Assembly (NCBI GenBank): GCA_012799755.1
Contig: JAAZKQ010000604.1
Location: 1 to 32,144 of the forward strand
DNA length: 32,144 bases
Reading direction: 5' to 3'
Source: Lentisphaerota bacterium
GTDB taxonomy: Bacteria; Verrucomicrobiota; Lentisphaeria; Oligosphaerales; Oligosphaeraceae
A program made the translations under genes and the position numbers. Positions 1,474 through 24,520 of this stretch are shown here, piece by piece (the first letter of the stretch is position 1; the number at the start of each line of letters is the position of its first letter). The notes beneath the pieces were generated by a model. The model worked only from the letters and a program-made list of their open reading frames with translations, had not been told where the DNA came from and ran no database searches.

Positions 1474-4400
1474 TTACCGCCTTCCCTCGCTGATCTTTGC
1501 CAAAAACACCTGTTGTTGCTCTGGGCTAAGCTGCCGGAAGCGTTCTACGAGCCATTCAATCGCCAGTTTGCTCAAATGGCCTTCGATCTTCGCCAGCATC
1601 GCACGCCGCCGATCACGTCCCGAAGCCGACAAGAATGCCGGCGCAGCGGTAACGCGCTCATGCAATGTGTTGACCTCGGCCGAGCTAAGCTGCGCTAGCT
1701 TCGCCGTGCGTTCTTCCAGTTCAGCGAGCCATGCTGTGGCTTTGCGTTCCCGCTCGGCGAGATGCCACTGGCAGAATGTCTCCATGGTCTCTGTCGGGTC
1801 CCACGGCAGCTCTGCGTCAGCTAGCCGCTCATAGACATCGGCGCAGATTTTGGCTGTATGAGCAGCATACTCGTCAGGGGTCAGCAGGTCATTTTCAAGA
1901 TTACGATACGCCTCCATAAAGATACGCAGCGCCTGACGTATCGCTTGGAAATCCTCAAGGTCGTCCGGGCAGCCCTCATAGATGGCGAAGAGTTCATTAA
2001 TCTCATTGTTGATTATTTCCAAGTCATCATATGATGCGATCTCGCTTTGCCACAGTTCATTCGCGCGCTTGCTGACCTTATCTATCTCCGCTTCAACAGC
2101 ATTGAGGAAGCCCGACAACTTAGCCCGTAATGGCGGCAGATCGGGCAAGTCCACATTCGCAGCAAACTGTTTGAGTTTTTTCGCATAGTCCGGACCCGTT
2201 TTTTGCAGAGCCCGAAGCTGTGCAATCCGCACTTGCCGAAAAGCCTGCTGATTACTCGTCAGCCACAAATCCACCTCGCGTATCGTCTGCCCGGCGGCGG
2301 CAAAGAGTTCGGCTTGCCGACAGGCATTCATCGTATGCTTGTTCAGCGCTTCAGATAAATCGTGCAGATTCAGCTTTTCCAGGTTCAAGCATATTCGGTG
2401 AGTCATCTTCTGCTTAAATTGCCCAACCGCATCCGGCGATTCATTCGGCGGCATTTGCCGCGGCAACCATGCCGGGAATATCTCAATGAGCTCCTGGCGC
2501 CTTTCCAGAATGATCGGAGTGTAGCCGTCGATTTCCGCATCAGTCCAGCGTGGCTTTTCCTCTTTCATTTTTTCCTGCAGCGCCACAAGCTCGGCCAGCC
2601 CCCAGGAAAGTAGCCCGGCGTCCTGCTTCTCCAAACCATCTTCAGTCTTGCGAATAGCCTTATTTGCCTCATCCTCAACCACCTTGATCTGCTGCATAGC
2701 CGTCTTCAGTCGCTCGACAAGAGTCTCCCTTTTGTACCCAAGCGTCGTCGGCAGGGGTATGCGCTTTTTCAGCTCTTCCGCGCGCAAGAAGCACTCCTTT
2801 TGCGCCGAATAGGTCTCGACCTGTTCCCACTCATCCAACAAGACCTCCCATTCCGATGACATTTCCCCAGATTGGAACAACACGACGTCATGCAGTCCAT
2901 TGAGATCGAGAAAAGCCCCCTTGAACGCGCCTTCATTCAGCCATTCGCTGACCGCGATGGTCTGATCATTTTTGACGATTGCCACTTTGTCCGTACGGGC
3001 AGCCAAGAACGCGCCAAGAAAAAGCCCGGCCGAGGCAATATTCGCGCCGTATGGCGGCGCGCAGAGGCCGCGTATGGCTTCGCCAAGATGGAGACGATTG
3101 TCAGCACCGCTCAGCCGTTGTTCCCACTTTTCGGCGACGCTTTTCAAAATTGGGTTTTCAGGTCGCGGTCGCACCGAGCCATTTTTGGCGTAGATTCCCC
3201 AGGCATCCTTGAGCACCGTGCTAGCTCGGTTTTGATCTTTCGATGGCTTGGCCATAACCGCGTTCCAGTCCAGACGCCCAAGCATCAGCTCCGTCGTCAA
3301 ACTCAGGCAGGTCTTGGCGGCATTGCCGCGCGCCGTACCAAAACCGTCAAAGGGAAAAATGACGGGCTTCGGATACACGCGCGCAAAGATTTCTGAACAC
3401 ACCCGGTCGAGCCGCCGCGCCATTAATGGCTCGCTGAACGCCGTGACATAATGCCGCTCCTTGATCATCGTGTCCAAGCGCGATTTCAGATCCTGGAGCA
3501 TTTTGTCCTCATGCGCAGCAATAAGATGGCCGAATTTGGCAGCGTCCTGTGGATTGATTTTGTCTTTCATGACGTCGATTTCAGCCAGGGCCTGCCCGAG
3601 CTTGCCTTCGTCATCAACAAGCAGGACGACGAGAATGGGCACGCCGGCGACCTTCGCATCCTTGGCTGCAGCACGCAGCTGCTGGCTTATTTGCCGTTCG
3701 ACACTCTCAAAATCACGATTGGGCTCGACATAGCAGTAAATGACCGTTCCACGCGGTTGGTCGCAGGCGAACGCATTGAGCCACTGGTCCACGGCAGCTT
3801 TGATGTGGATATTCACAAGGTCCAGGTGCGATGTCACCGCCTGATAACGCCATTAGGTCGTGCTAATCTTGTTCTCTTCGCCAAAGTCACACTCGCGATC
3901 GCCTAAATCATCACACCATTCCTTGGCTTTGGACGAAAACAAATTTGCCTTGCCCTTAACGTCATAAGTGCTGTTAACACGTTGACGAATGTAGGCCAAA
4001 AACTGGGCCTTGGGCACCGCATCCCCGAGGATGTCGAACTGCTTGAAGCCCTCGTCCCACTCCACAATGTTGAACTCGTCGCTTAGCTCCTGCAAGTTCC
4101 CGGCGGCGATTTCAACCGACAACCCAGCCAGTGCGGCCAGTGCGGCAGTCGCGTCATTTTTATGGCTTACCCGCAAGCCCATTTTCGCCGCCAGCACAAT
4201 CGCCTGCAGTATTCTGATGTGGTCGGTCATAAATTGCATGCCATGCCGCGCCATGGCCGATGCATACGAGTGCGTAATGGCGCCCTGCTGGCCGCTCTCT
4301 TCGGAGCTTATGAGCTCATGCTGCAGCGACTCAGTCAGCAAATCAACCGGCCACAGCACGCTGCTCTTGCTGCCGTCAATTGGGTAGTTCTGAAAACGGT

Positions 4401-5763
4401 CGAAGGTCTCACCCAGCAGCGCCAGGACAGAACGTTCCTGCAGATGCTTGCCGGCCGCAGCAAGGTGGAAGAGCAGCCACACCGCATAGGGCGAAAGCGG
4501 CCAGCAGCCCTTGCGGACGACATTGTGAAAGCGGCTGTCGTCTTGCCAAAGATGGTGATGCTGCGACGAGGGAAACCATTTACCAATAGACGACATAATC
4601 TGCATTGATTCTTCCCTGGCCGCATCCGTATTAAGCATGCTGTCAAGGAACGGCACATCGCGCTTTTCAATCAAATTGGCTATCAGGGTTTCCAGGTTGA
4701 TGGACAGAAAAGCCTTGTTGGCTGTCTGGTACCTGGTGACATAGCGCATGATCTCATTGCGGTGTTCGACGGCCACACGCTGGACGTAGGCATTGAGCTC
4801 AAACTGGATAAATCCCACAAAGCAGACTTTGCCAGTGTTGTTCTGCACGGCCTCAAACAAGTCTTGCAAGGCGCCGCTACCAGCTATGTGACTTCGCGTC
4901 GTCGCAAATTCCGTGTAGCGGCCAAATTCGTCGAACAAAATAAGGATGGACTTGAACGCTTTTCCCACCCCACAGTATTCGCGCGCGGCGAGGTCAATAA
5001 CATCCCGAACAGACTCACCACCATAGGCTGAGATACGGATGTTATGTTGTTCGAGCACGGTGTTAACCTGCCGGTACACCGCGTCGTCCTGTTGCTCCAA
5101 CTTGGCGATAATCTCGTCAACAGTACTGGCGTCACAGGCGCTAAGGACCGCGTTGATCAACTCAAGGTTATCCTTGGCCATTCGGAGCAAACTCTCGGCT
5201 TGCTTGAAACGCGGACGAAGCTCGTCCAGTGGCCGGGTGTTCAGCCCTCTTTTTTGCACCTGACGAATGATTTGCCGGGTCGTCTCAGAAGCGAGATCGA
5301 CACTTCGCATGCCGTTCAAGGCCAGAACCAGGCACGGCTGTTTGGTGTCGGTCAACAAGGTCCGCAAATTAGCCGCGATGTTCTGATCAGCGGCGGCCAG
5401 ACCTGCCAGAATGCTGTCCGCTTCCGAGCCGGTAGGATTGTCCAACAGCCGGCCAATGGTAAGTGCGAGGTGTGATTTGCCCGTGCCATAACCGGCGATG
5501 GCCAGCGTAAAAGGAACGTCATCCAAACCGTAGCAGTGGTCGACCACCGCTTTGACAAAACTGGCACTGTCCTGCAGGCGATGGCCATGGCTACTGCCGA
5601 TATCCGCCTGTGAAACGCCGTGGTATGTCGGCCCATGAAAAACGAATGCGGCTGAGGCCGCGGCGGCTTTCTTCTCATCGGCATCGAACCAATCAATGCT
5701 AACGGCGCCGTTAAAGAGCTTGTCGCCACGAAAACGAACCACCGAACCAAGTAATGTGGACAT
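1474..5763 (-). pseudogene. Second SspC/BrxC-like P-loop ATPase (1429 aa if intact), interrupted by an in-frame TAA at 3853-3855
   Basis: ORFs 3853..5763 and 1474..3837 are in the same frame: AAG ATT AGC ACG ACC TAA TGG CGT TAT CAG GCG GTG. Walker A AGYGTGKS, Walker B ILFDEFG, and the WPLSP, QERS and APPYG motifs parallel those in the 18095..21484 protein. Strong RBS AGGAGG at 5763; no convincing RBS at 3837. Confidence 0.72.
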
Positions 5764-5777
5764 ATCCCTCCCTCCTC

Positions 5778-6626
5778 CTATATCATGTCGTCATAGATCA
5801 TTTTCCAGGCCGCGTCAGCACTTTTCTTGGGATGGATCAGCCATGGCTGCATGTGCCTGTCCACGCCAATCAGGCCTTTTTGTTCGATCAGCGCCAGTAC
5901 ACGCAGAGTTTCGTCAGCATCCCAACCAGGAATACTCTTCCAGCCGGCTTCCTGGTCTAGTTCAACAACTGATAGCTGCTCATTCTTGGGAAAATGCAGC
6001 TCAATCAATCTGAGAAGCCAGGCGCCCAAGCCATAACCAAATTCATCGCGAATAGGTGTGGGCTGGCGCGTGATGACGTCGCCGTTTTCTGACAGCGCAC
6101 CGCAGGCTCCAAAGGCCGCGTTGTCTTCGTACATGCCGACCATGGGCCCAATGATGCCGGAGGCTGGGCAATCGAGCATCTGCCCCAGGTAGTTTTCGAG
6201 TTGCGTACGCGTGAACGTCATGCCCAATCGCTGCTTGCCTGGGAAGAAAGTCTGGTACCACACCTCGGCACCATGTAACGGGCTACAAAGCTGGAAATGC
6301 GCAAGCCACTGGGTTATGGGCAGCTTGAGGTAGGGATCTTCAAAAAACACCACGCGACCAAATGGCGTCAACTCGAATCGCTTAACGGCGCTACGCGGCG
6401 CCCCCACTAACGAGATCAAGCCCATGCCCCGGCAGTAATCAACAATTGCCGGGACTTTTCCGGACGATTTTCCCGTGGGAATCCCAGTTTCGGCGGCAAT
6501 GCTTTGACTGTCGCCCGCCTTGCCTGCCGCGGCGAAACGAAGTAGCGCATTGATGTACTGCCGCTCAGGCTTGAAAGTCGTATGAAAATTGCGCGCCAGG
6601 CGCGATGCATTAGCACTCAAAACCAC
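5778..6626 (-). CDS. DUF4007-family protein, divergent second SspB-like copy
   Basis: FHTTF, GKVPAIVDYCRGMGLI and LTPFG...EDPYL...TQWLAHFQL align by eye with GHQTF, GKNMVGSIQYWCELTGII and VTPFA...DPYLED..SWWLLHWRL of 21481..22374. Start is GTG 6626 or TTG 6620, overlapping the upstream gene's stop. Confidence 0.72.
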   Translation of the reverse strand: MVLSANASRLARNFHTTFKPERQYINALLRFAAAGKAGDSQSIAAETGIPTGKSSGKVPAIVDYCRGMGLISLVGAPRSAVKRFELTPFGRVVFFEDPYLKLPITQWLAHFQLCSPLHGAEVWYQTFFPGKQRLGMTFTRTQLENYLGQMLDCPASGIIGPMVGMYEDNAAFGACGALSENGDVITRQPTPIRDEFGYGLGAWLLRLIELHFPKNEQLSVVELDQEAGWKSIPGWDADETLRVLALIEQKGLIGVDRHMQPWLIHPKKSADAAWKMIYDDMI

Positions 6627-9600
6627 GTTCCTCCAAGGGCGTGATGCGTATCTTCACGGCCTTCTTGACGAGTTTGTTCCGCATGGGGTCCCATTGTTGG
6701 CCAATGGAGTAACATTCGCCCTTGCCAAGAGCGGACAATCTGCGGATCCATTCATCGGCACTTCGACGATCAATCTGGCTGAGAATCTTTGCAAAGTTTT
6801 TCATCTCTGTATCCGAGGGCCGAAAGAACAGCTGCTGGTCAGCTAAAAACATTCGGGTAATTTCATCGGCTTTCATACCACTCATGCTTTGGGTTGCGAG
6901 CATCAACGATATGCCGAATTTGCGTCCTTCTCGCAAGTATTTGGCCAAGGGGCTGTCTTCTCTGTGGTCGAGGTTTTGCACCTCATCCAACACAATGACC
7001 TTGGGGTTGGTTTTGACACCACGGGCTTGTAGGAAACCATACAGATCCCAGAGGATAAATTCGGTAATGAGCCGGCCAGAATGCGTATCCATCCCATAGA
7101 GCTGGAAAATGTTACAGAGAGTCTCTGGAGCGGAAAAAAGCTGATCCCAGTTATAGCTGCTCGGGCCGGAGGCAAAGGGGCGATCAAGAACAAAGGGACG
7201 CAACTTGTTAGATAGGGATAGTGCAGGAGATTTGCTTTCCTTGCTTTCTCTCAGCTCATCTAACATGGCTAGCATTTTCTCCAGGTCCATTTCTGTTCCC
7301 CAACGCGCAACACCATCCATGATGACTTGGTGCAGACAGGAGTATTGCTGGTCACCGATGGCATACACCGAATCAAAGAGCCCGGCTATGCGCTTAGCAA
7401 TGTTGTTGGGGGTTTCGGTGAACTCAATACCGCCATCATCCGATGTTTGTGCCAGGAAGGGATTGATTGGCAATGGATTATTGCGCACCACGTGCTGGGT
7501 GGGATGCAAAACCACCTGCGTCATCTCTTCCAACTGATTGGGCAGGAAGCCATTAGTGTAATCAACAATCAAGCTGTGCTGCTGCAACTTCTGCATCTCA
7601 CAGAGAATGGCCTGGATGGCGTAGGTCTTCCCCTGCCCCGACGAGCCAAAGATGATCATGTGGCGATTAGGAAGCTCTGGATGATTAAATTCCCAGTACA
7701 CGGGCTGGTCACCGGGAATGCTCGTACCCAGCAGAATTTTTGCCGGCTTGATGGACGATGGCAGAATAATATCCGTCTCATCGGTGGCACCAAAATCAGC
7801 AACCTGCACCAGACCGGCGGGATGTGAAACAATGACGGGGGCTATCGCCTGCGGGGATGGTGGCAGGGGCATCACGATCGACGCCGGCGTGCTGGCCCCA
7901 TCGCCTGCTATCTTCTCGCCGTCAGCAGCAGCCTTCTCAGCAGCAGCCTTCTCAGCAGCCCTCTCAGCAGCAGCCCTCTCAGCAGCGGCCCTCTCAGCAG
8001 CGGCCCTCTCAGCAGCAGCCCTCTCAGCAGCGGCCCTCTCAGCAGCAAGCTCTGCACCATCGTCGGCGCTGTCGTCATCGTCATCCTCATCGTCATCGTT
8101 TGCTGCATAATCATCTTGAGCAAATCTGCAGTCGTCACTACCCGATGGCGCTGCCAGTCCTTCGCCCTGTCCGTTGAGGCTGGACCAGTCAATTGGCACG
8201 GCATCACTACCACAGCACAGACGACGCACAAAACCACCGCCAATTTCGTAGACGTTCCCCGTAATCCCTGGCATCCCCGCGCTTGGCCAGTAATAGGAAC
8301 GCCTGATCTCGTCTTCGCCATTGATGCCAAAGAGAAAAACCGACGCCGCCCAGCTGAGCTTAAAATCGCCTTCGGCGAGGCGTTCCAAGGCGTCGCGCGC
8401 GGCTTGGTAACGCCCTCTTTCTACCTCGGTCTTGCATGCAATCAGGCGGTGCAGTTGCATCCACCAGTAGCGTTTGTCCGGCCGTTGTTCGGAGCCCGCC
8501 GTATTGGGCGCAAAAGCCGCCGCAAGCACCAGCAAACCGTTATCGATTTGCCCCTGGGCTTTGTTGACATAATCCGAGGGCTTGGAACCCAGCTTACATT
8601 CGACGAGCTGAATACGGACGTGCAAGCGTCCATCGTCCTTAATGGCGACCTGCAGCCACATAAGATCGGGTCTCGTGTTATTCTCGGCTAGATCGAACCA
8701 ATGCCGGTAGGCGTCCAAGGACACCAGTGTTTCGCAAAGCAGCGACTCGCCCTCGCCCGATTGTAGCATCATGCGTGACAGAGCATAGGCCATAAAGTCG
8801 TGAATATAATTGTCATGTACCCCCGTAGCCCGCACCAGCGACAAGCCAGAAAGGGTACTGGCAGTGGCGATGATTTTCTCAGCGCTTTCTTTACACTCGT
8901 CAGGCGTCCAACTTGCCTCGGGGACATAAAGCTCTTTAATGGCCTGGCTCACCCGACGCTGGATGTTCTCCAGGGTAAATGCCTCAGTTGAGATGGTGTA
9001 GTTATCTTCGCCTTGGTTGCCGACACCAGAACCGAACCCGATGATATCACGCTTGTTGCCGGACGTTTTGTCACCAGGTTTGATAAGGCGTTCGTCCATA
9101 TTGGGGTCAATACACACCACCCATTCGGCTTTTTCATGGAGACGATTCACTAATTCAATCCAAGGGTTGAATACGCCCGTAGCCACAACCAGCGTCCCGG
9201 GTTGCGAGGTCTTAGTACGCAAGGAGTGAAGCAAGTTAGCGTGCTTATCCGCCAACCCAAACTGCCGATTGCTGGTAATGCGCTGACGGCGGTATTGGCC
9301 ATGAGGATCATTTGTTGAACAGCAGGCTTTTTCCAGGATCGGATACATGAGTTTATGACTGGTTATGTCGAATTCATTCACCTTCTCGAAGCTACTACCA
9401 CTACAAGCACCGACAAAGTCATACAAAACGGCTATGTCAGCCTCAAAATGCTCTTTAATAAGCTTGACGAAGGCACCTTGGTCGCCTTGCTCGATAATGC
9501 GATGGGCGATGGAGAAACGGCAGTAGCGATACAGCTCATACGCCTTCTCCGTTTCGGCTGCTTCCCAACGTTCTCGCCACTGTTGCACCCACATGGCCGC

Positions 9601-12168: not shown

Positions 12169-13823
12169 TTCCCGTCTCCCCCATTGTCGATTGGATTGTG
12201 AACCAACGCACACGAATCAGAGAGCTGAACCAGAAAGCCGGCGCCTTCCAGCATGGTCAATAGCCACTTGTCAATATCTGCCGGGAGATGGAGGCCCTGC
12301 TTTTTGCTCTCCAAATTGGCCTTATTCAGGCCGACAGCGTCAAGCACAAGTCCGTGCCGCGATTTCAGCTGCTTCTTGAAGGTGTCATAGGTGAGACGGC
12401 CATTGTGCGGTACGATGGTGACGACCAAGTAACGCAGGAGCTGCTCGTTGAGCACAAAGCGCGCCCCAGCACTTCTCTTGGGAACAATCAGGCCAATGCG
12501 TTTGGCCAGGCTGGTAAACAACTTCCAGCCGTAGGCGTCATCGGCGTTTTTGTAGATGCTCTCAAGCGATTTCTGCTTGCCGCTGGCGTGTTCAGCCGAT
12601 GCTTTCACCTCATCCAAAATCTCTTCTACTCGCAATGAGGCAAAGATCATTTTCCGGATATCTTTGACCGACTGCTGAGACAAACGACGCACTGCAGGCT
12701 GGACCTCATCGGGAGCCGAGAGAGCCAGGAGATACCCAAGCCCAGTGTCCGGCGCATCAGCTTGTTTGGTCACACGGGCACTTTGACTGGCCAGGGCGCG
12801 AAGCACCTGCATGCAGCATGCCGTCTCAAGCAACGCAAGGCGATCCATGATATCAAGTTTTGCTGTCAACAGCCTGCGCAACTCAACAGCAAAGAGATAA
12901 CCCTCCCGCCAACTGTCCGCATTGCAATAGCCGGCTTCAACATATCGATTCGCTTGATCTTTTCTGTCTATGTCAGTATACGATGCCGTCTCGTCCTCCA
13001 GGCCGACATCTATCAGCTCCGCAATCTCAGTCAAGGTTTTCGGGCAGGATTTCTCACGTAGTTGACCAAAAGCCTGGTTCAAACTTTCACGAAGCCAAGC
13101 GGGATCGCGCTCGTTATCTGTGAAACCGAGGTCATCGCCATCACACCATTGCCCAATGCTTTCAGAACTCTGCCGTAAGGCATTGCAGACCTGCAAGTAG
13201 AGGAGCTCACCGCCACGGGCGAGAAATAGATGCTGGGTCATATTGAAAACTGAAGATAGGTTTGATAAAAGATCGCACCAATTCTGAGAAGAGAGTTTTT
13301 TGGCTTTCGACTCGCTCCATATTGTTTCGCCTGCGAGGAAAGCAGGTGACACTGGCAGGAAGCTCTGTGCGCACCACGTCCGTCCGCCGCCGGCGCCCTG
13401 GAAGCCCATGAACAGATTGGTCAAGGTTCGAACCACGTCCTCCTCCTGGCTGGCACCGTTTATGTCTATGCAAGACTTGAGGTTATCAACCAACTCTTGG
13501 TAGTGTTCCCTATGCGACGCGTGTCTGGTCTCCAACTGCGATGCGCCGAGGAAGGAGAAGAGTTTTAGATTCAGACGGGCCTTGGGCGAATACTGTAACT
13601 TTGTCCAAGAACAAGCATCGCTTGTCAGCGGAGGTAAAGCGTCAGAAACAACATCTCCGTCGTTGACTTTTTTTGGGGAAAAAACAAGCAGCAGTAATTC
13701 CACCAGGAACTCGCAGGGCGACTGATCTTTGTATAGCCGTTTCCCGTAAAGCAGAAGGGAAGGATTTGTTACACTGCCTGTTTCATCTGAACGAGAACTC
13801 TCAGTTGGGAAGTACTCAAGCAT
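12165..13823 (-). CDS. sspG: DndG/SspG-like protein (552 aa)
   Basis: The C-terminal IGLIVPKR...FVLNEQLL...RHGLVLD...GFLVQLSDSCALV resembles the DndG C-terminus (xSDSxxAxxV). It sits between the F-like and H-like genes. Start is ATG 13823 with RBS GGAGGTG and an 8-bp overlap with the upstream stop. Confidence 0.6.
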   Translation of the reverse strand: MLEYFPTESSRSDETGSVTNPSLLLYGKRLYKDQSPCEFLVELLLLVFSPKKVNDGDVVSDALPPLTSDACSWTKLQYSPKARLNLKLFSFLGASQLETRHASHREHYQELVDNLKSCIDINGASQEEDVVRTLTNLFMGFQGAGGGRTWCAQSFLPVSPAFLAGETIWSESKAKKLSSQNWCDLLSNLSSVFNMTQHLFLARGGELLYLQVCNALRQSSESIGQWCDGDDLGFTDNERDPAWLRESLNQAFGQLREKSCPKTLTEIAELIDVGLEDETASYTDIDRKDQANRYVEAGYCNADSWREGYLFAVELRRLLTAKLDIMDRLALLETACCMQVLRALASQSARVTKQADAPDTGLGYLLALSAPDEVQPAVRRLSQQSVKDIRKMIFASLRVEEILDEVKASAEHASGKQKSLESIYKNADDAYGWKLFTSLAKRIGLIVPKRSAGARFVLNEQLLRYLVVTIVPHNGRLTYDTFKKQLKSRHGLVLDAVGLNKANLESKKQGLHLPADIDKWLLTMLEGAGFLVQLSDSCALVHNPIDNGGDGK

Positions 13824-16107
13824 CGAACACCTCCAGCCTGCCTTTCTGAACGGTAAATTCTTGCCCGCAGAAAGCATGATTGGTTTTGAGACGCACGAGC
13901 AGGATGCTGTCATCAGAATCGGTCTTTGCGCGTGATAAGATGGCATTTTTGAAGCGATCCAGGCGCTGCAGATATGATGCGTCAAGCATTTCACCCAACT
14001 CGCCATTATGCCGCATCATAACAAAATCTAGAAATGGCAGCTTCAAGGGTAACTCGATCTTATCGTACTGGTTCCTGCTGCAGATGAGCAGATCCTGTCG
14101 TTGTTGCATCAGTGCGTTGCCGCTCGTTTCCAGGACAAGCTCAAATGCATCTTTCCAGTTGACGGCGGCAAGAACGACTTGCGCGCTCTGGCGGATTTCA
14201 TTACTGCGCCGATTCAAGGTGATGTAGAGCCGAGTGTCCGTCTGTGATGAACCTTCCGGCAGGCGTACGCCAGTGAAGTACTCCTGTAAAACCCGGAATA
14301 TCTGTTTATCTAGGATAGCTTTTTGCGGGGTCGGCAAGCCGTGATTGCTATCTTGCCAGGACAGCCAGTCCAATATCGCGGGGGAATTGAGGTATTGGCT
14401 CAAGTAATACCGCTGATCTTCTGGAAATTCATAGAGGAAATAGTAGAGGCGGCGGACTTGCTCGCGGGCCCGCGCGCTTTCCTCCTCATCGTGGGCCATA
14501 CTCGATCCTTTTCGCAGCAGCGAAATGATGGCGCCCTGCAGGAGAGGTATCTTGATATCTGGCTCAAGACTTCTGTTGCGTAGCCACATGCCACGCTCCC
14601 AGCCTGGGCTGGGACGAGAACCATAGTGCTGCTCGGTGATCGCCCGGACGGCTTTCATCTCCTGGGCATCGGGGTCCGCCTTCACCCCGTCATGGCCAAA
14701 GAAACGATTGGTGAACAGATAGGCCGTTGGCGAGAGCGTACGGTCCTTTTTCAGCAGCTCCTGGATGGTAACTTCATTCAGACCGGACGTGATGATATAA
14801 GCCAGATGCTCGGTCAGCTGCCGCATGGTCAAACGCGTGCCATATTCGTATAGCCGGCGGTAGGCCAAAAATATCCGCGATACCGCCAAGTCCTGCATGT
14901 CCCAAAGTACCCTGACGTTGGTGTAGACAGGACAACGCTCGGCATTTTCACAGCTGCCACAGCATTGCCAGCGCTCTTTAGCAAGCATCTTCGCAAAAAT
15001 GCTTTGCGCAATGTCAAGATTGTCAAGTTGCGCCAAGTTGAAAACCAGGAAGTGCAAGTCATCAGCCAAGGCGAGTTCGCCCTGCCCATCCTGACTGTCG
15101 ATGGCGTTGAGCACGGCGTCCTCTAGTTCCACCGGGCTTTTTCTTATATTGGCGTGCTGACTTTTGACCAAATCCAGCAGCGTGCCGGTATTCGATACCA
15201 ACAAAAAACGGCGGCTCCGTCCCTTGAGTTCCTTGATCAGTTCGTGGTCTTGCTGCCGATTGCGCTCACTCAAGTCTTTGATGATCGTGACGCCATTGCA
15301 TTCTTCACGATCCAGCATGGGGGAACTCAATGGCGCCACGGAAGGCACCCCCCGCAAGCGCTTCAATATCTCCAACGCTATCGTCGTCTTGCCATCACCA
15401 GCATGACCAGTCAAGATGACGTGATGACCACGCGGAGAGACTAACTCGTCGTAAATGATATTCGCTAATGGATGAGATACCTGTATCAACGAAAAATCTT
15501 CAGCGCAGGCCTGCGACTCTGCCAAGGCATTCTCATTGCCACCACCACTGCGCTGTAAGGTATTCAAATAACGAACAAATGAATTGCATGAAGGAGGGAT
15601 AAGATTAAGAGCATACTGAGTAGAACCCATTGATTGATTGATGTTCAACGTCTCACCCCCGTACAATTCGATTAAGGTTTTCCGGGCCAATAATCTATGT
15701 TCTTTATTCTGTAAAAACAAGTGTACTCTATTGTTTACTTTTGCGCCACTAAAAACATCAATAATACGTTTTTTTGTGAAACGAGAATGCTTGATGTTGA
15801 GAATGTCATTGTACTCTTCTTGTTTATCTGGTTTGATTAAAAGAACATATATTTTGTCATTTTGAAGATAATAAAAGGGAGCCTCAATCATTGATGATAA
15901 AAAATCTGATTGCGGTGATAACTGATTATACCAGTATTCAAATAGAGACTCTAACTGGGAGTCTAGATTAATAATATCATCACGTCCCGGTGATTCTTCA
16001 TATAAATCAACGATTGCTAGAAGCAAGGCAAATTTATGTGGTTTTGGTTCCCCATCAAATTGTCCTGCACGAATGTTCCGAAATAATTCAAGCACTTCGT
16101 CATTCAT
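13816..16107 (-). CDS. sspF: DndF/SspF-like P-loop NTPase with N-terminal SBD-like (PT-DNA sulfur-binding) domain (763 aa)
   Basis: Walker A LTGHAGDGKT, IIKDLSE, VSNTGTL and a CxxCxxxxxCP cluster. The N-terminal ~150 aa contain KPHKFALLLAIVDL...LFEYWY...EAPFYYLQND. Start is ATG 16107, overlapping the desulfurase stop (ATGAATGA). Confidence 0.62.
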   Translation of the reverse strand: MNDEVLELFRNIRAGQFDGEPKPHKFALLLAIVDLYEESPGRDDIINLDSQLESLFEYWYNQLSPQSDFLSSMIEAPFYYLQNDKIYVLLIKPDKQEEYNDILNIKHSRFTKKRIIDVFSGAKVNNRVHLFLQNKEHRLLARKTLIELYGGETLNINQSMGSTQYALNLIPPSCNSFVRYLNTLQRSGGGNENALAESQACAEDFSLIQVSHPLANIIYDELVSPRGHHVILTGHAGDGKTTIALEILKRLRGVPSVAPLSSPMLDREECNGVTIIKDLSERNRQQDHELIKELKGRSRRFLLVSNTGTLLDLVKSQHANIRKSPVELEDAVLNAIDSQDGQGELALADDLHFLVFNLAQLDNLDIAQSIFAKMLAKERWQCCGSCENAERCPVYTNVRVLWDMQDLAVSRIFLAYRRLYEYGTRLTMRQLTEHLAYIITSGLNEVTIQELLKKDRTLSPTAYLFTNRFFGHDGVKADPDAQEMKAVRAITEQHYGSRPSPGWERGMWLRNRSLEPDIKIPLLQGAIISLLRKGSSMAHDEEESARAREQVRRLYYFLYEFPEDQRYYLSQYLNSPAILDWLSWQDSNHGLPTPQKAILDKQIFRVLQEYFTGVRLPEGSSQTDTRLYITLNRRSNEIRQSAQVVLAAVNWKDAFELVLETSGNALMQQRQDLLICSRNQYDKIELPLKLPFLDFVMMRHNGELGEMLDASYLQRLDRFKNAILSRAKTDSDDSILLVRLKTNHAFCGQEFTVQKGRLEVFDA

Positions 16108-17230
16108 GTTGATTCTCAAGTAGTTTATGAACTGTATTAATAAAAAGATCAAGCCCATCCAAAGACGACTGAGAACCGAAAGATATCCTAACCACGCATT
16201 CCCTGTAACCTCCTTCAACAATTAGGTTGATTACATGTGATACTCCAACAGCTCCATTACAGGCCGAACCCCTTGAAATACATATCGTTTTACAGTTTGC
16301 CACAAGGACATCAGAGTTAACTTTAGGAAAAATCACACTTAGTGTTCCCGGAAGAGATTTTTCAATAGGGGTTATTACTCTCGCAGTTGGAATTTTTTCA
16401 TGAAGAATACCACGGAAACGTGTCGTTAGCTCATCAAGAAAACGCCTTTTCTTATCCAAATTCATTGCGGCAATTTTGCATGCTTCGCCGAAGCCGACGA
16501 TAGCAGGCACGTTTAGCGTTCCGGGTCTGAGATCAGCTTCCTGTCCTCCCCCGCGAAAGGGTCTTACCCAAGGCCAGCAGCGAGCACCGCCACGGACAAA
16601 GAGCGCGCCGATGCCCTTGGGGCCATACAGTTTGTGGGCGCTGAAAGACGCAAAATCGCAATTGATCTTCAAGACGTCAAATGGTATTCGTCCCAGCGCC
16701 TGCGCTGCATCGCTGTGGAAATACGCGCCATTGTCGTGTGCAAGGCGCGCCAGTTCGGCAATGGGCTGGATGGTACCGATCTCGTTGTTGGCTGCCTGGA
16801 CGGAGACCAGCAAGCAGCGTGGCGTGATAAGACGGGCGGCCGCCTCGAGGTCAACGGCGCCATTCTTATCAACTGGCAACTCAATGAGCTCGAAGCCGCG
16901 TTCCTGAAGCAATCGCGCTGGCTCCAGGACAGACTTGTGTTCAATGGCGGATACGGCGATCTGCCGGCGCTCCTGCAGCGGAGAGAGGAGTACCCCCAGG
17001 AAGAGCAGATTATTACTTTCGGTTGCGCCGGAGGTAAAGACAATTTCCTCTGGGAGGGCATTGGCCAGGGTTGCGACCTGCTGGCGTGCTTTGTTGACGG
17101 CAGCGGCGGCACGGCGCCCCATGATGTGACTGCTGGCGGGATTGCCAAAGTCGTCGTTCCAGTAGGGGCGCATGGCTTCCACGACTTCGGGAGCGCATGG
17201 CGTGGTCGAATTATGGTCCCAGTAGATCAT
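16100..17230 (-). CDS. sspA: Cysteine desulfurase (SspA/DndA/IscS-like sulfur donor)
   Basis: YWDHNSTTP, FTSGATESNN, IEHKSV, HSDAAQ, PLP lysine in SAHKLYGPKG, RPGT and catalytic GSAC. Embedded in the PT operon. Start is ATG 17230 or TTG 17239. Confidence 0.88.
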   Translation of the reverse strand: MIYWDHNSTTPCAPEVVEAMRPYWNDDFGNPASSHIMGRRAAAAVNKARQQVATLANALPEEIVFTSGATESNNLLFLGVLLSPLQERRQIAVSAIEHKSVLEPARLLQERGFELIELPVDKNGAVDLEAAARLITPRCLLVSVQAANNEIGTIQPIAELARLAHDNGAYFHSDAAQALGRIPFDVLKINCDFASFSAHKLYGPKGIGALFVRGGARCWPWVRPFRGGGQEADLRPGTLNVPAIVGFGEACKIAAMNLDKKRRFLDELTTRFRGILHEKIPTARVITPIEKSLPGTLSVIFPKVNSDVLVANCKTICISRGSACNGAVGVSHVINLIVEGGYRECVVRISFGSQSSLDGLDLFINTVHKLLENQHE

Positions 17231-17241
17231 TCTGCTCAATC

Positions 17242-18075
17242 CTACAAATGACAGATCGTGCAGGCGATGGCCTCGCCGCTATCGGCGCCGTCACCCCATA
17301 CATCCTTAAGTTTTTGATGCCCCTTGAAAGCAAGGGCGTTGCGTTCTTTGCGTTTCAGGTAGTCGGCTTTAATCTCATCGGCGCGCTGGGCCAACTCATC
17401 CAGCGACTCGCCTTGATTCCACGTGTAGCGCTCTCCCGTCACGGGATCAACTTTCTCATAGGCCTTGGCTTTTTCGAATAAGTCTGGGTGGTTCTCCAAC
17501 AGGCCAATCCACTCGCGCTTCTGCTGAAAAAAACAAAAATAGCAGCCTGATCGAGAGCGCCAGGAGTAGTATTTCGGCAATCCCAGACCGGCCTCCTCAA
17601 GTATCCTCACGACGTCAGCATGACGAATGTTGTTCTCAATAAAGGGAAAGACGGCCTTGATGTTCGGCTTCGTCGATATATACCCCGTGCGATGCGGCTC
17701 GTCAGCCCGAATACCAACATAGCTCACAACCTCGTCGTCGCCGATATACTGCTCGTAGGACTTGAGTTTGAGCATTCTGGTACACCAGCGGGTTTGTGCG
17801 TCAGGCAAAACCCCTTTATACATGTCCAGGTAAAATTTGAAGTCCTTGATAGATTTTAGCCACTGAATTTTCTTGCCCAAAAAGGCTTCTAGCAAACCTA
17901 AGTATTCATAGGTTTCATCAAGCTCTTCTCCGGTATCACAGAAGACGTATTCGACATTGGGAATCTTGCCACGGAGGTACACAGCAAGGGCCGAGCTGTC
18001 TTTCCCCCCGGATAAGGCGATAATATGCCGCACGGGCTTAGCTTCTTTATCTGATGTGTGCGTAGCGACAGGCAT
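17242..18075 (-). CDS. sspD: PAPS-reductase-family protein (SspD/BrxP-like PT-installing enzyme)
   Basis: PP-loop SGGKDS, FCDTG, RWCTRMLK, GIRADE, SRSGCYFCFFQ and C-terminal CTICHL. Lies between an SspC-like ATPase and a desulfurase. Confidence 0.85.
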   Translation of the reverse strand: MPVATHTSDKEAKPVRHIIALSGGKDSSALAVYLRGKIPNVEYVFCDTGEELDETYEYLGLLEAFLGKKIQWLKSIKDFKFYLDMYKGVLPDAQTRWCTRMLKLKSYEQYIGDDEVVSYVGIRADEPHRTGYISTKPNIKAVFPFIENNIRHADVVRILEEAGLGLPKYYSWRSRSGCYFCFFQQKREWIGLLENHPDLFEKAKAYEKVDPVTGERYTWNQGESLDELAQRADEIKADYLKRKERNALAFKGHQKLKDVWGDGADSGEAIACTICHL

Positions 18076-18094
18076 TTAATACAATCCTTGATGG

Positions 18095-21000
18095 TCACGT
18101 TTGGTCTGATTCAAAGGTCGTCAGTAGTTCTCGCAAGGCGGCAACCAGCGCCCGCGGGCTGCCTTGCGGGGCAAGCTGGCGGATCTGGCTTTCAATGGAT
18201 AAACGTATGTGATCCTTTTGACGCTGTTCCTCTCCGGACAGGACCACTGCACCGTCACCATAATTTTGCCAGACCCGTTGGAAGAGCTCACCCATCCCCT
18301 GCGCCAAGCCGGTAAAGCTGTCAATGTCCATGTCGCTCCAATGCTCAAACGGCCGGTTGCAGATCAAGGACAGGGCGGCAACAGGACTGTGCTCGTTCCC
18401 AGCGGCATTGCTGACGCAAGTCAAGAACGGCGAAAGGATGTCGTGCTTCATCCGTGGCAAGAGCCAGGCAGCCCGCCGTTCGAGTTCCAGCCAGGCGTCG
18501 CTGCCCGTTGCCAGTCCGCAAGCACGTAGCAGCACATCGCGTTTCTCCGTCTGCAGCGCAGGCGCAAAACCAGCCAGCGAGGACAGGCTGACATTGAGCT
18601 GGTTGAAAAAGGACTCGACGTCCTTATCACGTTGTTCCCCAGCCCGGAAGGGCGCGAGGCCAAAGCAAGCCGGCAGGTCTTCGAACAAGAGCTGGTCTGG
18701 CGCGGCCGCCAGGAGCAACTTGTCGCGAACGTCCATCGCGGTGTGATCGCCGAGCTTGGCGGTTTTTTGCGTCAACGGCGGCAGGCTGTTGAGCATCCGA
18801 TAGAGCGCACGCACGACTGACGCTGTCTTCGCGGGCTGCTTCAGGCCACGCGCGAGGCGCTCGACGACGGCTTGGCGAATGCCATCGACCTTGGCGCCGG
18901 ATATAGCAAATAGCTCCGGCCGGCGTTGCAACAATTCCAGATGGCCGGTCTGCACTTCAGGAACGAAGGTCTTCTCGCGGTAAAGAAATAGTTCATCCTG
19001 GTAGTGGATATAAAAGGCTGTGAAGAGTATAGGATGAACGCCTTCCGGCAGGCCGTAAGGCACTTGAGCGAGGCGGCTGAACAACTCATCAAGAGGAAGC
19101 TGCGCGATGTCCTCACCGAAGATGCTCTCTTCGAGCAGGTCCCAGCAAGGGCGTAGGTTGCAGGGGTTGTCAGCGGCAGGTGGGCATATTTCCCACTGTT
19201 GGGTATCCGGATTGAAGACGTGCATGCCCGCCGCACGCATAACCGACTCGTAGATGCTTCGTTCAGGCGGATAGCCTTCAATGCCCAGGCACTCAACACC
19301 GCTGTGGGTCAGCATGCGCTCCAGCAGGCTTCGGCGGGCGCCAGCCGCCGCGCTGGAGAGCTTGCCGCGAACGACCAGTTCGTTGCGGACTCTAGGGCTG
19401 AGGTGGTAAATGTGGTCACAGGCGTCCGAGAGCATGCGGTTGACATCGACGGGTTGTCGCGGGTGTTGATTGCGGCCGCGCCAGAGCCATTTGCAGGCAT
19501 TGCCGGCGGGTGCTGGTCGGGGATCAAGCAGTCCCTGTAGTTGCTGAGCGATACGTTGTTCGCCCATGGCCAGGCGGAGACTGAGTTCGCGGCGGGCGAT
19601 GCGGTCGTCGCGCAGCTCGGGAGTGTTCTTCTCGGCCCAGCGCAGGCAGGCCAGTTCTTCGGCAATGCCGCGCAGAGAGTCGATCTGCGTGGGCAGCGCG
19701 ATGATGAGCCGGGGGTGGTCCTGGCTGATTTGCAGTGCGTCCTTGAGCAAGGCGTCCACATTCGCTTGTGGGAGGAGGACGATGATGGCGCCGGCAGCGT
19801 CGGCAAAGTCCTCGGCTCTGCTGAGCAGGCTGCTACTGAGGGCATCGGCATAGAACAGCTGAAAGAAGCGGTTGATGCCGGTCTGCAGGCTGTGGCGGCG
19901 GGCGACCAGCGTGCGCTGGGGCAGGTGCTGGCAGAGCGTCTCCAGCGGCGATACGCTCTCCAGCTGCAGTACGCGGCGGCCTTCATTGAGGCGTGCGAGC
20001 AGGTCCACGTCGCTGCCTTCCCACACGCGGTAGGAATTGTCCAGGCGCCGGTGGGTAATGATGGACTGCCGGCGCAGGAATTCCAGATCATCGGTAAGGA
20101 TATCGGGATTGCCCACCGTGCTGCCCAGGATGTTCGCCGTGGCGCGCAGGGGGCAGATCTCGGCAAGGACATTCATCAGCGCGATGTCCTGAACGAGCTC
20201 CAGCTGCGCGGGGCTGAGTCCATGCCGGCTGTTGATGATGTCGTTGGCTTCCAGCAGGCGCTTGCCGTGCGCGACCCGCGCCAGACTGGCCTCGAAATTG
20301 GCCATGAGGTACGCGAACAGCGCGTGCAGGCGGATGAAGGGATCGGCGGGCGTCATAGTCTGGTCCAGCTGGTATTGGAAGGCGTAGGGCTCGGAGCTGG
20401 TCAGATACGAGAAGATGGACCGCTCATTCTGCGCGAGGCGCCGGAACAGATAGGGCATGGCCAGCAGCAGGGTCGGATGTAGTGGCCAGGCGCGACGAGC
20501 CAAGGCCGCAAACTCGTTGTAATCAAGACCGATGGGCAGCGGCAGCTGCTTGCTGCGAATGGCTTCCAGCGCGGCGGCGAGACCCTGGCGGAATTCCTCG
20601 GGCAGATCGTTGCGGGGCTGCAGGGCCTCGGCGATGAGCCGGATGGTGGTACCGGCCGACTCGTTGAACTGAATGGACTGAAAGCGCTCCTGGACCTTAT
20701 TCCACTCGTTGCGCATGGTCCGGTCTGACAACTCAACGTAGTCATCGAACATCTGATGCAGGGTGATGATGAACAGCAGCGGTATGGCCGTCTGCCGGCT
20801 GGCGTACTCAGCCAGCTCCTGGAAAATATAGACGTCGCCGCCCGCGCGGTCCTGCAGGGCATACTCGAGGGTCTTACCGGCTTCGTCAACCAGCAACAAC
20901 ACGCCGGCGTACTGCTGGGCCTTGGCCTCGCGCTGGATTTCTCCGAGGAACGCGACGACGACGGCCGTGTCGGTCCAATTCTTCGCGCTGATGGCGATTC

Positions 21001-21484
21001 CCAGGCGGCTGCGAATGTCCAACACCCTGGCGCCCTGCTTCATCTCCTTAAGGGCGTCAAGCAGGCCCTCCAACAGCAGCTGGGTGATGGGCCGGCGCCG
21101 CGCCGTGACGGGTATGAGCAAATAGCCGTTGTCGCCGGTCGCCGGCTGGCACAAGGCGTGGAAGCGCTCCCGCAAGTAGGCGTTGTCGCCCTGCAGAGCT
21201 TTGTCAAGATGTTCAGTGGCGGCGGCATTGCGCGTAAGCAGTTGGCAGAGGAACACGGCGAAGGCCGATTTGCCGGTGCCGTAGGGCCCAATCAACGCAA
21301 AAGCCCGCTGGCCATTCTCGGCCAGCAGGCCGTCGCTGAGCCGCTCCAATGCTTGGGCGACATTCGGGGTGACGATGTAGCCATCGGCACTGCTGCGGTT
21401 ATGCCAGTCATTGCGTAAATTGACCGACCGCAAAAAGCGCGGCGCGACAGCGACGTAATCAGATCGTTTCGTCTCGGCAGTCAT
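18095..21484 (-). CDS. sspC: SspC-like P-loop ATPase (1129 aa)
   Basis: RFLRSVNL, Walker A GPYGTGKS, Walker B LLVDEAGK, ITLHQ, WPLHP, QNERSIFSYL, WEGSDVD and PYGL. Start is ATG 21484 with an ATGA overlap with sspB. Confidence 0.8.
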   Translation of the reverse strand: MTAETKRSDYVAVAPRFLRSVNLRNDWHNRSSADGYIVTPNVAQALERLSDGLLAENGQRAFALIGPYGTGKSAFAVFLCQLLTRNAAATEHLDKALQGDNAYLRERFHALCQPATGDNGYLLIPVTARRRPITQLLLEGLLDALKEMKQGARVLDIRSRLGIAISAKNWTDTAVVVAFLGEIQREAKAQQYAGVLLLVDEAGKTLEYALQDRAGGDVYIFQELAEYASRQTAIPLLFIITLHQMFDDYVELSDRTMRNEWNKVQERFQSIQFNESAGTTIRLIAEALQPRNDLPEEFRQGLAAALEAIRSKQLPLPIGLDYNEFAALARRAWPLHPTLLLAMPYLFRRLAQNERSIFSYLTSSEPYAFQYQLDQTMTPADPFIRLHALFAYLMANFEASLARVAHGKRLLEANDIINSRHGLSPAQLELVQDIALMNVLAEICPLRATANILGSTVGNPDILTDDLEFLRRQSIITHRRLDNSYRVWEGSDVDLLARLNEGRRVLQLESVSPLETLCQHLPQRTLVARRHSLQTGINRFFQLFYADALSSSLLSRAEDFADAAGAIIVLLPQANVDALLKDALQISQDHPRLIIALPTQIDSLRGIAEELACLRWAEKNTPELRDDRIARRELSLRLAMGEQRIAQQLQGLLDPRPAPAGNACKWLWRGRNQHPRQPVDVNRMLSDACDHIYHLSPRVRNELVVRGKLSSAAAGARRSLLERMLTHSGVECLGIEGYPPERSIYESVMRAAGMHVFNPDTQQWEICPPAADNPCNLRPCWDLLEESIFGEDIAQLPLDELFSRLAQVPYGLPEGVHPILFTAFYIHYQDELFLYREKTFVPEVQTGHLELLQRRPELFAISGAKVDGIRQAVVERLARGLKQPAKTASVVRALYRMLNSLPPLTQKTAKLGDHTAMDVRDKLLLAAAPDQLLFEDLPACFGLAPFRAGEQRDKDVESFFNQLNVSLSSLAGFAPALQTEKRDVLLRACGLATGSDAWLELERRAAWLLPRMKHDILSPFLTCVSNAAGNEHSPVAALSLICNRPFEHWSDMDIDSFTGLAQGMGELFQRVWQNYGDGAVVLSGEEQRQKDHIRLSIESQIRQLAPQGSPRALVAALRELLTTFESDQT

Positions 21485-22374
21485 TTCCCATCCCCCCGGC
21501 GATAATACGCGCTCAGCAACGACTCGGCCGCGCCGCCCTCCAGACGGCAATGGACTTGGGCAATGCCGGCCGATTCTGTAAAATTGATGGCCGCGCCCCA
21601 GGCGGGTTCCTCTTGCAACTCCTCAATGGCCTCAATCAGGGTGTTTTCATCCAGCATGAAGACTTGGCCCGGACTGCCCTCTTTGTACAGCACGCTCTGG
21701 ATGGTCATCGCTTTTTTGTTCGCGCGAGCAAAATACTCACTGAGCGCATAGCCGATGATCGCCGCCGGCAATGACGCCTTGGCGCCAATGGCAAAACGAT
21801 AGAAATCGCCGCCATTCATCGCCTGGATGAGCCCCAACTCCTGAAACGGACAGTCGAAGCTGTCATCGCCGCTCTTCTTTTTCTCAAAGCGCCGGCTGCC
21901 GCAATAAGACCGCACATAGCAATCGACGTCGCGCATGACCACGCTGTCCGCCGGCGGCTTCTTGCCCTCAGCCCAGAAACGCAACAGCGCCTCGGCCACG
22001 TCCTGCCGCGTGAACTCCGGCTTGCGGATGTGCGAAAACATCGCTGTGCCGGCGGTCGCGTAATACGGATTGGCCATGAGTCGCCAATGCAAGAGCCACC
22101 ACGACGCCTGGTCTTCCAAATACGGGTCCCAGCCGCCGTCCTCAGCCAGCAAGGCCCGGGCAAAAGGCGTGACCGCGCCGTCGGCAATGATGCCCGTCAG
22201 CTCACACCAGTACTGAATGCTGCCGACCATGTTCTTGCCAACCCCGAGGTCGACGATGGCCGTTTCAGCAGCAAAACTCTTCTCCCCAAGCGTGTACTCG
22301 TAGCCCTTCTGCAACCACCCATATCGTAGCGAAAAGGTCTGATGACCCGATAATTTCACCCGCTGTTTGCTCAT
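21481..22374 (-). CDS. sspB: DUF4007-family protein (SspB)
   Basis: SGHQTFSLRYGWLQKG, LGVGKNMVGSIQYW, WDPYLED...WLLHWRL, CPFQELGLI and SPGQVF are typical DUF4007 motifs. It is the first gene of the operon. Confidence 0.88.
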   Translation of the reverse strand: MSKQRVKLSGHQTFSLRYGWLQKGYEYTLGEKSFAAETAIVDLGVGKNMVGSIQYWCELTGIIADGAVTPFARALLAEDGGWDPYLEDQASWWLLHWRLMANPYYATAGTAMFSHIRKPEFTRQDVAEALLRFWAEGKKPPADSVVMRDVDCYVRSYCGSRRFEKKKSGDDSFDCPFQELGLIQAMNGGDFYRFAIGAKASLPAAIIGYALSEYFARANKKAMTIQSVLYKEGSPGQVFMLDENTLIEAIEELQEEPAWGAAINFTESAGIAQVHCRLEGGAAESLLSAYYRRGDGK

Positions 22375-22715
22375 GTCTCACCCTTATATGATCATCGCCA
22401 TGGCCGGCAATGCTGTCTCCCAACCCGCATCCGCAATCCCGATTCCGGCTGAGGTCGCTTATCCACTGTCGGCGGATGGCAACCGCCTCCCCGCCACGTT
22501 TTCATCTCAAATTAACCATTGGCACCATAACAGACGTCCCGGCAATGCAATGTACAATCCAGCACCATACGCACTCACTGAGCGCCAAAGACTGGCCCAA
22601 GGGGAGCAACGCAGAACTATGCCTCCACCTTACTGAGCTCTGCAGGGTAGAGCGCATAAAGTAACGCTAGTTCCCACCTTTGCCCAATTTTTGCCAGGCG
22701 GAGAAGAGTGCGCGT

Positions 22716-24357: not shown

Positions 24358-24520
24358 TGGCTTGAAGACGACAACGGACAGCGCCTACCCGGCGGACTGC
24401 GTTATATTAGGGCTGTTGACTGCGTCTGTTGACGCAGGTGTCCAAATGGGCGCGGTATAGCAAGCAAGCCAAGGGGCCTGGTGCTTATTTTTTCCAATCC
24501 CGGGGAAGTTAGGACAAAGT

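Follow-up and report, generated by a model that had tools for sequence, protein, structure and literature searches.

Among the known systems closest to the one described here is SspABCD-SspFGH, in which SspABCD writes single-strand phosphorothioate (PT) into DNA, and SspFGH damages DNA without PT, stops the replication of phages and is toxic when PT is missing (PMC8092258). How SspFGH and DndFGH sense PT is poorly understood (PMC12914056). Here we describe an operon on contig JAAZKQ010000604.1 of the Lentisphaerota bacterium assembly GCA_012799755.1, of which positions 1 to 32,144, a stretch of 32,144 nucleotides (nt) hereafter called the window, were analysed. The operon shares with SspABCD-SspFGH, as described in PMC8092258 and by the PADLOC models, the sspBCD(A) writer beside F with a P-loop, G, and H with a nuclease motif and an FtsK/HerA domain, but it differs in that its F-G-H lie far outside those models, a sulfur-binding domain (SBD) is fused to F, and two conserved genes, B2 and C2, follow H. 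It is a variant of SspABCD-FGH with an SBD on F and the B2/C2 pair. On balance, we lean towards the view that it joins a sulfur-marking writer to what is likely a five-protein restriction machine (F-G-H-B2-C2) that would damage unmarked DNA, a view built on sequence motifs, structural models and analogy with characterised systems.

Several other described systems hold some of these parts. DndFGH (PMC10853773) has the F-G-H trio in common with the operon, together with variable N-terminal fusions on F (wHTH, NERD, tandem kinases) of the kind found in two loci of our set (L079, L089), whereas here the trio is paired with sspBCD and not dndBCDE; an Orc/Cdc6 ATPase and DUF4007 pair beside DndFGH is not described in the portion of PMC10853773 cited. 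Type 4 BREX (BrxP, BrxC, PglZ, BrxL) shares PT marking, a DUF4007 protein, a PAPS reductase, a BrxC ATPase and a cysteine desulfurase, but the operon has two DUF4007/ATPase pairs and a HerA-nuclease effector. PglZ, retained in all type 4 BREX taxa (PMC12839542), had no match among the open reading frames (ORFs) of the operon in PADLOC, Pfam or NCBIfam, and the conserved loci leave no gene position unassigned; since neither PglZ nor BrxL is present, the locus is not BREX. The BRC and Orc/Cdc6-HerA capture systems (PMC12839542, PMC10853773) likewise have a BrxC-like or Orc/Cdc6 ATPase, a DUF4007-like wHTH protein and a HerA/FtsK translocase at a single locus. BRC combines PglZ, a STAND NTPase, GNAT and TGT with HerA and DUF6079 and is without F/G or a PT writer, whereas no PglZ, GNAT or TGT match was found in the operon, and HerA is fused in H. 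The SBD restriction enzymes (ScoMcrA, SprMcrA, Hga) have the same sulfur-pocket fold (VIA Z 12-20), but carry it on an HNH or PD-(D/E)XK nuclease that cuts PT DNA, whereas here its fusion partner is an NTPase and the surrounding operon is predicted to make PT.

The operon lies on the minus strand in the transcription order sspB-sspC-sspD-sspA-F-G-H-B2-C2. Positions 1474-22374 hold ten co-directional minus-strand ORFs, the final two of which form a single C2 gene split by a TAA, giving nine genes whose junctions overlap or lie 2-20 nt apart. A preliminary description of this DNA had proposed nine co-directional, tightly coupled genes of the SspABCD-FGH type, and both points hold, with strong PADLOC matches for SspB, SspC, SspD and SspA and weak ones for F, G and H. 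The features are as follows.

21481..22374, minus strand: sspB (B1), DUF4007 / triple-wHTH protein of 297 amino acids (aa), writer module (PADLOC SspB, E 1.2e-80; Pfam DUF4007, E 5e-76)
18095..21484, minus strand: sspC (C1), Orc/Cdc6-type AAA+ ATPase of 1,129 aa from the ATG at 21484, writer module (PADLOC SspC, E 6e-289)
17242..18075, minus strand: sspD, PAPS-reductase-family protein of 277 aa with an SGGKDS motif (PADLOC SspD, E 2e-109; Pfam PAPS_reduct)
16100..17230, minus strand: sspA, cysteine desulfurase of about 376 aa (PADLOC SspA, E 8e-119)
13816..16107, minus strand: F, SBD-SspF/DndF-like protein of 763 aa, P-loop GHAGDGKT at residues 234-241 (PADLOC SspF, E 3e-28; model pLDDT 84)
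15655..16107, minus strand: SBD, spanning residues 1-151 of F; the linker behind it, at 152-172, is of low confidence (match to PDB 8H0L, model and pocket counts)
12165..13823, minus strand: G, SspG/DndG-like protein of 552 aa (PADLOC SspG, E 2e-23; 640 homologue clusters among 7,998 candidates scored)
6610..12168, minus strand: H, SspH/DndH-like protein of 1,852 aa (PADLOC DndH 5e-54, SspH 2e-21; Pfam DUF87)
5778..6626, minus strand: B2, remote DUF4007 (BrxA-like) protein of about 280 aa, start GTG at 6626 or TTG at 6620 (Pfam DUF4007, E 2.7e-7)
1474..5763, minus strand: C2, BrxC-like AAA+ ATPase of 1,429 aa read through one stop (homologues; BrxC fold matches)
3853..3855, minus strand: in-frame TAA, codon 637 of C2 (homologues and sequencing runs, given below)

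A DUF4007 protein, an AAA+ ATPase, a PAPS reductase and a cysteine desulfurase thus stand in one operon, and by sequence and analogy this part is predicted to encode the PT writer SspBCD with SspA and to install single-strand PT. The Walker A (GPYGTGKS) and Walker B (VDEAGK) motifs of sspC are kept in 47/47 sequences. F with its Walker A motif, G, and H with its C-terminal FtsK/HerA domain adjoin sspBCD as in SspFGH; the homology is real but remote, and F-G-H form a divergent clade, because their PADLOC scores (1e-21 to 1e-28) are far weaker than those of two canonical plasmid loci on the same models (1e-133 to 0). H consists of a PD-(D/E)XK motif (residues 1167-1192), an acidic / (AAERA)n linker and a C-terminal HerA/FtsK ATPase (GSSGQGKT at 1508, LDEVQ at 1727), with the nuclease motif kept in 55/55 and Walker A in 55/55. 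The (AAERA)n repeat lies at about 7920-8050 of the window, between the nuclease and HerA domains; one sequencing run is without one 15-nt unit of it, and relatives have a variable, acidic linker here.

The conservation of B2 and C2 beside H was assessed in 79 loci that a G-anchored metagenome scan yielded (from the best 80 of its 115 confirmed stretches) and in six genome loci; the gene-order counts that come next include near-duplicates. B2 follows H in 56 of the 57 loci with at least 300 nt beyond H, and the gene after B2 is C2 in 52 of 54, the exceptions being two at contig ends and one with a broken B2 (L026). Where at least 3 kb lies upstream, sspC is found in 54/55 loci, sspD in 51/55 and sspA in 30/55, the last being optional in the clade. 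With five error-rich or duplicate loci set aside at the outset, 31 loci, the window among them, hold every one of the eight core genes at near-full length; 28 of these are left once near-copies are removed. Six plasmid sspABCD-FGH loci (6 of 9 matches) and three chromosomal loci from the same phylum, with an F of about 600 aa, served as controls, and these nine canonical sspBCD-FGH loci have no B2, no C2 and no SBD on F; nor do three methyltransferase-type NERD-kinase-F-G-H loci have B2/C2 within the stretches examined. The operon therefore exceeds the three-gene restriction cassette of SspFGH by B2 and C2 after H. The preliminary description had made its reading depend on the last two genes being conserved beside H in other genomes, and did not recognise its two additions from canonical layouts; the counts bear out both points. 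Among 401 genomes of the phylum, six have the clade F, all six with C2, and a seventh C2 lies on a 3,245-bp contig.

These observations bear on the possibility that B2/C2 are a left-over or independent BREX-derived passenger of a defence island, functionally unconnected to F-G-H. Canonical FGH does without such genes, and unrelated cargo inserts in these operons: an AAA_21 ATPase and DUF4276 between H and B2 in one locus (L021:16472-18255), and a RhuM-family gene between sspC and sspD in another (L095:4961-5998). However, the position of B2 and its overlap with H are fixed in 56/57 loci, the ATPase motifs are intact, none of the six clade-F genomes is without C2, and the mean identity of B2 and C2 (57-58%) is as high as that of F and G (54-55%), so that we regard a passenger as improbable. 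As a separate observation, in L014 (genome G006) the same 393-aa transposase-like ORF interrupts C2 twice, and the rest of the operon is intact.

Pairwise divergence across 27 dereplicated loci falls into blocks. The correlation coefficient rho is 0.94 for B1-C1, 0.93-0.97 among F, G and H, and 0.89 for B2-C2; B2/C2 divergence follows that of F/G/H (0.71-0.81), less so that of D (0.45-0.48), and not that of B1/C1 (0.29-0.35). Together with gene order, this leads us to divide the locus into two parts, a writer (BCD, A) that can be swapped and a restriction module of five genes (F-G-H-B2-C2), and the writer and the SBD vary independently of that five-gene core. The preliminary description had envisaged separate writer and surveillance complexes, with which the two modules agree; its premise that the second pair duplicates sspB/sspC does not stand. 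The same figures argue against B2/C2 being a second target-selection module that shares SspD and SspA and places PT at a second motif, like BrxP and BrxC in type 4 BREX. B2 is a DUF4007 protein, C2 is a BrxC-like ATPase with Walker motifs intact in 108/108, and brxP with brxC suffices for PT in type 4 BREX (PMC12914056), all of which speak for it; yet B2/C2 divergence follows F/G/H more than D, B2/C2 never substitute for B1/C1 (C1 being present in 54/55), and they are placed after H, with their nearest relatives standing beside PglZ and BrxL and a separate sspBCD. We thus consider a second writer rather unlikely.

As to what B2 and C2 are, C2 has Walker A (GYGTGKS, residues 91-97) and Walker B (FDEF, 277) motifs and a long, helical C-terminal region; an N-terminal Orc/Cdc6-type AAA+ domain and a wHTH region are both present, as in BrxC, and the Walker count above refers to full-length representatives. 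It matches PADLOC SspC at 2e-11 and no PADLOC BrxC model. A profile of C2 matches the ATPases of two sspBCD loci with a BREX arm at E 1e-30 and 3e-29, and SspC at 2e-8 or weaker; C2 groups with these BREX-arm ATPases with support of 0.998 (midpoint-rooted FastTree) and 0.968 in another tree, and a quick tree without them separates C2 and SspC with support of 100. The best non-self match of the B2 profile is the second, BREX-arm DUF4007 protein of L107 (E 9e-19). In structure, a model of an intact C2 homologue (L025, residues 1-1150, pLDDT 81, pTM 0.46) returned only BrxC chains at Foldseek ranks 1-7 (9ZLL/9ZDX; E 9e-9), and aligned with BrxC at VIA Z 17.0 (458 residues, root-mean-square deviation (rmsd) 5.0, residues 3-579), ORC/Cdc6 being lower at 12.7; the comparison speaks for residues up to 580 and barely covers the part beyond. 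Neither the C2 nor the B2 profile had a sequence match in the PDB. A recent duplication of sspB/sspC is ruled out, as C2 and C1 share 24% identity over 231 aa (E 0.001), the two ATPases form separate groups, and the closest relatives are in BREX arms; the B2 profile meets B1 at a probability of 20%. The DUF4007 and ATPase pair noted after H in the preliminary description is thus conserved there, but is BrxC-like in C2 and remote from B1 in B2. When residues 1-578 of C2 and the F core (420 aa) were modelled as a complex, the score was 0.00, which is neither for nor against binding.

The two BREX-arm loci, L106:9206-24769 and L107:7600-26194 (plasmids NC_011961.1 and NZ_CP112879.1), are a sister hybrid that holds the nearest B2/C2 relatives among the proteins compared. 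Their order is sspBCD, a second remote DUF4007 protein, a small ORF, the BrxC-like ATPase (1,400-1,800 aa, without a PADLOC or Pfam match), a gene at the PglZ position, BrxL and a desulfurase, and sspBCD near brxCZL has been noted before (PMC12914056). Like the operon they have a full sspBCD and a second DUF4007/ATPase pair, but their effectors are PglZ and BrxL, whereas the operon has F-G-H and is without the small BrxB-sized ORF. A profile of the N-terminal part of H had no similarity to one BREX-arm PglZ sequence (probability 0.1%), and the fold of the F core gave middling AAA+/STAND-like matches alone (Z 8-9), with BrxB not among the matches listed; we therefore do not propose that F takes the place of BrxB.

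The SBD on F is predicted from sequence and model to bind PT-marked DNA. The N-terminal 165 aa of F match SBD-Hga (PDB 8H0L) at E 7e-8, or 9e-24 with an alignment profile, and the AlphaFold2 model of F superposes on 8H0L with a TM-score of 0.84-0.87 and rmsd of 2.2-2.4 A (VIA Z 19.9, 144 aligned residues), followed by the SBDs of ScoMcrA and SprMcrA at Z 13.3 and 12.6; the fold is thus that of SBD-Hga and the ScoMcrA SBD. The sulfur-binding pocket was defined in PMC6224610 and consists in Hga of H25, K26, L75, P76 and H79 (PMC10602919). In the predicted pocket of F (H24, K25, A76, P77, Y80), H24, K25 and P77 align with H25, K26 and P76, and A76 and Y80 replace L75 and H79. Across 55 SBD matches in related loci, the pocket has H in 54, K/R in 54, P in 55 and H/Y in 54; the seed of this profile was 45 of 47 extensions picked with a PH[KRQ]-like filter, which makes the H and K counts, and not the P count, partly circular. 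The proposed PT-reader domain on F is thus supported in sequence, predicted fold and pocket, although as a clade feature it is not universal: of the 68 loci that reach far enough upstream, 51 carry the SBD as a fusion to F, three carry it on a split ORF and 14 have none. Five SBD-less loci keep an intact sspD and hold no remnant (L024, L035, L048, L081, L098), two others (one locus, duplicated) hold a partial remnant, three related loci have lost the SBD along with the start of F, sspA and most of sspD, and the remaining four are cut by contig ends, interrupted or have other genes upstream. The SBD is also the most variable part, with a mean identity of 27% and a rho of 0.22 or less with either module (24 loci), and comes in two swapping subtypes of 33 and 23 sequences.

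The direction in which the SBD would act can be read in two ways. Given that SspFGH is toxic without PT, we suggest that PT bound by the SBD would be a self signal restraining the nuclease. In an alternative, the SBD would switch the same five-gene module on in response to PT, much as SspE is activated, or would aim it at foreign PT DNA of another motif. Characterised SBDs direct PT-DNA cleavage (PMC6224610, PMC10602919), host PT activates SspE (PMC8092258), the SBD is variable and swaps between subtypes, and SBD-less loci retain an intact writer, which all fit this alternative. Nevertheless, the toxicity of SspFGH in cells without PT means that PT restrains SspFGH (PMC8092258), and a PT-activated nuclease would need extra control in host cells predicted to mark their own DNA; we therefore find the activator unlikely.

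Several variant loci were noted as well. In one lineage (L038, L045 and L049; about 6300-8320), an HNH gene and a small ORF stand where complete loci have most of sspD, all of sspA and the SBD, and the start of F, with G-H-B2-C2 intact and DNA 94-97% identical to complete relatives, which fits a loss of the mark together with a loss of F. A long F of about 1,530 aa, with an SBD, NERD, two protein-kinase domains and the F core, occurs in L079 (5407-9996), L084, L085, L089 and L091, still arranged sspBCD-F-G-H-B2-C2; this form probably accounts for the 3% of SBD homologues that PMC10602919 notes in fusion with a kinase and an unknown domain. L111 (genome G031) is an F-G-H locus whose examined stretch contains no ssp writer, and its ORF after H is a stand-alone SBD protein of 205 aa (E 7e-29 to the SBD profile). 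L109-L113 (G364, G031, G293) carry NERD-kinase-F, G and H, in G364 after an N6 methyltransferase and a specificity-subunit gene, and may resemble MADS mad6-8, judging by a PADLOC mad8 match on H and a preprint gene list.

Taken together, the favoured mechanism of marking and restriction would run as follows. SspA would supply sulfur and SspB, SspC and SspD would put single-strand PT in host DNA, by homology to characterised SspABCD, and the SBD on F would bind that mark. BrxC forms ATP-dependent oligomers in type I BREX, and BrxA binds BrxC and inhibits its DNA binding (PMC13326643); by this analogy C2 would probably oligomerise on DNA and scaffold or load F-G-H, with B2 as a BrxA-like regulator. 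The HerA/FtsK motor and PD-(D/E)XK domain of H, whose motifs are intact, would then translocate along phage or plasmid DNA that bears no mark and nick it. CpsCA is one of the PT motifs that SBD-Hga binds (PMC10602919), and independent variation of writer and SBD could let the machine re-pair with different PT motifs. A bolder proposal, possible in our estimate but short of probable, is that the BrxA/BrxC-like pair is obligate in the F-G-H machine and that the swappable SBD gates it as a direct reader of the self mark, making this an undescribed and widespread Ssp-BREX hybrid.

Several points weigh against the favoured mechanism. Characterised SBDs sit on nucleases that cut PT DNA and hence activate there (PMC6224610, PMC10602919), and, being absent from 14/68 loci, the SBD cannot be the sole self sensor. 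Canonical SspFGH works with three genes, so that B2/C2 are dispensable in principle (PMC8092258), and BrxB, PglZ and BrxL are all missing from the locus. The loci were found through a G query and are silent on C2 occurring without FGH. Furthermore, the co-evolution signal consists of distances among related, non-independent loci and is support rather than proof, and B2/C2 share 29-42% of tree splits with F/G/H, hardly more than the 29-38% they have in common with B1/C1.

The system is patchy, as it was found in 4/351 genomes of a class-level sample and in 0/46 genomes of the same family, and this would be expected of a mobile defence locus. C2 homologues nonetheless form a large clade, with 1,065 clusters at 90% identity from 7,994 scored candidates and 353 at 50% identity (E up to 1e-30); of the 120 listed, almost every one is close to 1,428 aa long and covers the whole query. 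No C2 was found in viral contigs or in 401 genomes of the phylum of G401, and plasmids gave no near-full-length match; genome contigs scanned with a single C2 half gave one weak, unrelated stretch as sole match. Two further C2 subclades (P0261-P0393; about 1,410 aa and 1,430-1,500 aa) have intact Walker motifs and may mark other effector modules.

The TAA found at C2 codon 637 belongs to this assembly alone, because all 45 aligned homologues have Glu at this codon and position 3855 is C, giving a Glu codon, in contigs of 8/8 sequencing runs. Recoding of the TAA was rejected, as relatives and all eight runs have a sense codon; the data fit an assembly error or a rare nonsense allele equally. 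If the TAA is real, this strain has a crippled copy; the copy in the population is intact.

An esterase gene lies to one side of the operon and carbamate kinase and leucine genes lie to the other, and short repeats found genome-wide border it. These repeats, at 1050-1450, 22670-22900 and also 23620-24370 of the window, have about 50-280 matches across the genome, and ORFs called within those flanking the operon are probably not genes. The genome holds no second copy of the operon genes except two cysteine desulfurases. There is no tRNA in the window, and a promoter scan of it was at chance level; RNA-library contigs span parts of the operon, and contigs cannot show transcription. In a search for an empty site, the flanking genes of the operon were not found in two congeners.

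The possibility of an undescribed subtype, raised in the preliminary description, holds in so far as the layout is a variant of SspABCD-FGH; no description of sspBCD-FGH together with a BrxA/BrxC-like pair turned up in the literature searched, which stops short of the supplements of PMC10853773 and PMC12839542, where such neighbourhoods may be listed. It does not extend to the domain on F as such, since PMC10853773 already lists N-terminal wHTH, NERD and kinase fusions on DndF, with the SBD called wHTH there. Current tools likely mislabel the system, because PADLOC models match F, G, H, B2 and C2 weakly. A structurally known sulfur reader fused to F, with natural variants that have or lack it, makes the PT sensing step accessible to point mutation; if our reading is true, the SBD would be a named PT sensor of an FGH system, inhibiting instead of directing cleavage. 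The conserved BrxA/BrxC-like pair ties PT restriction to BREX and offers a route to the role of BrxC outside BREX, and, if true, BrxA/BrxC would be a general loader that plugs into different effectors, either PglZ-BrxL or F-G-H.

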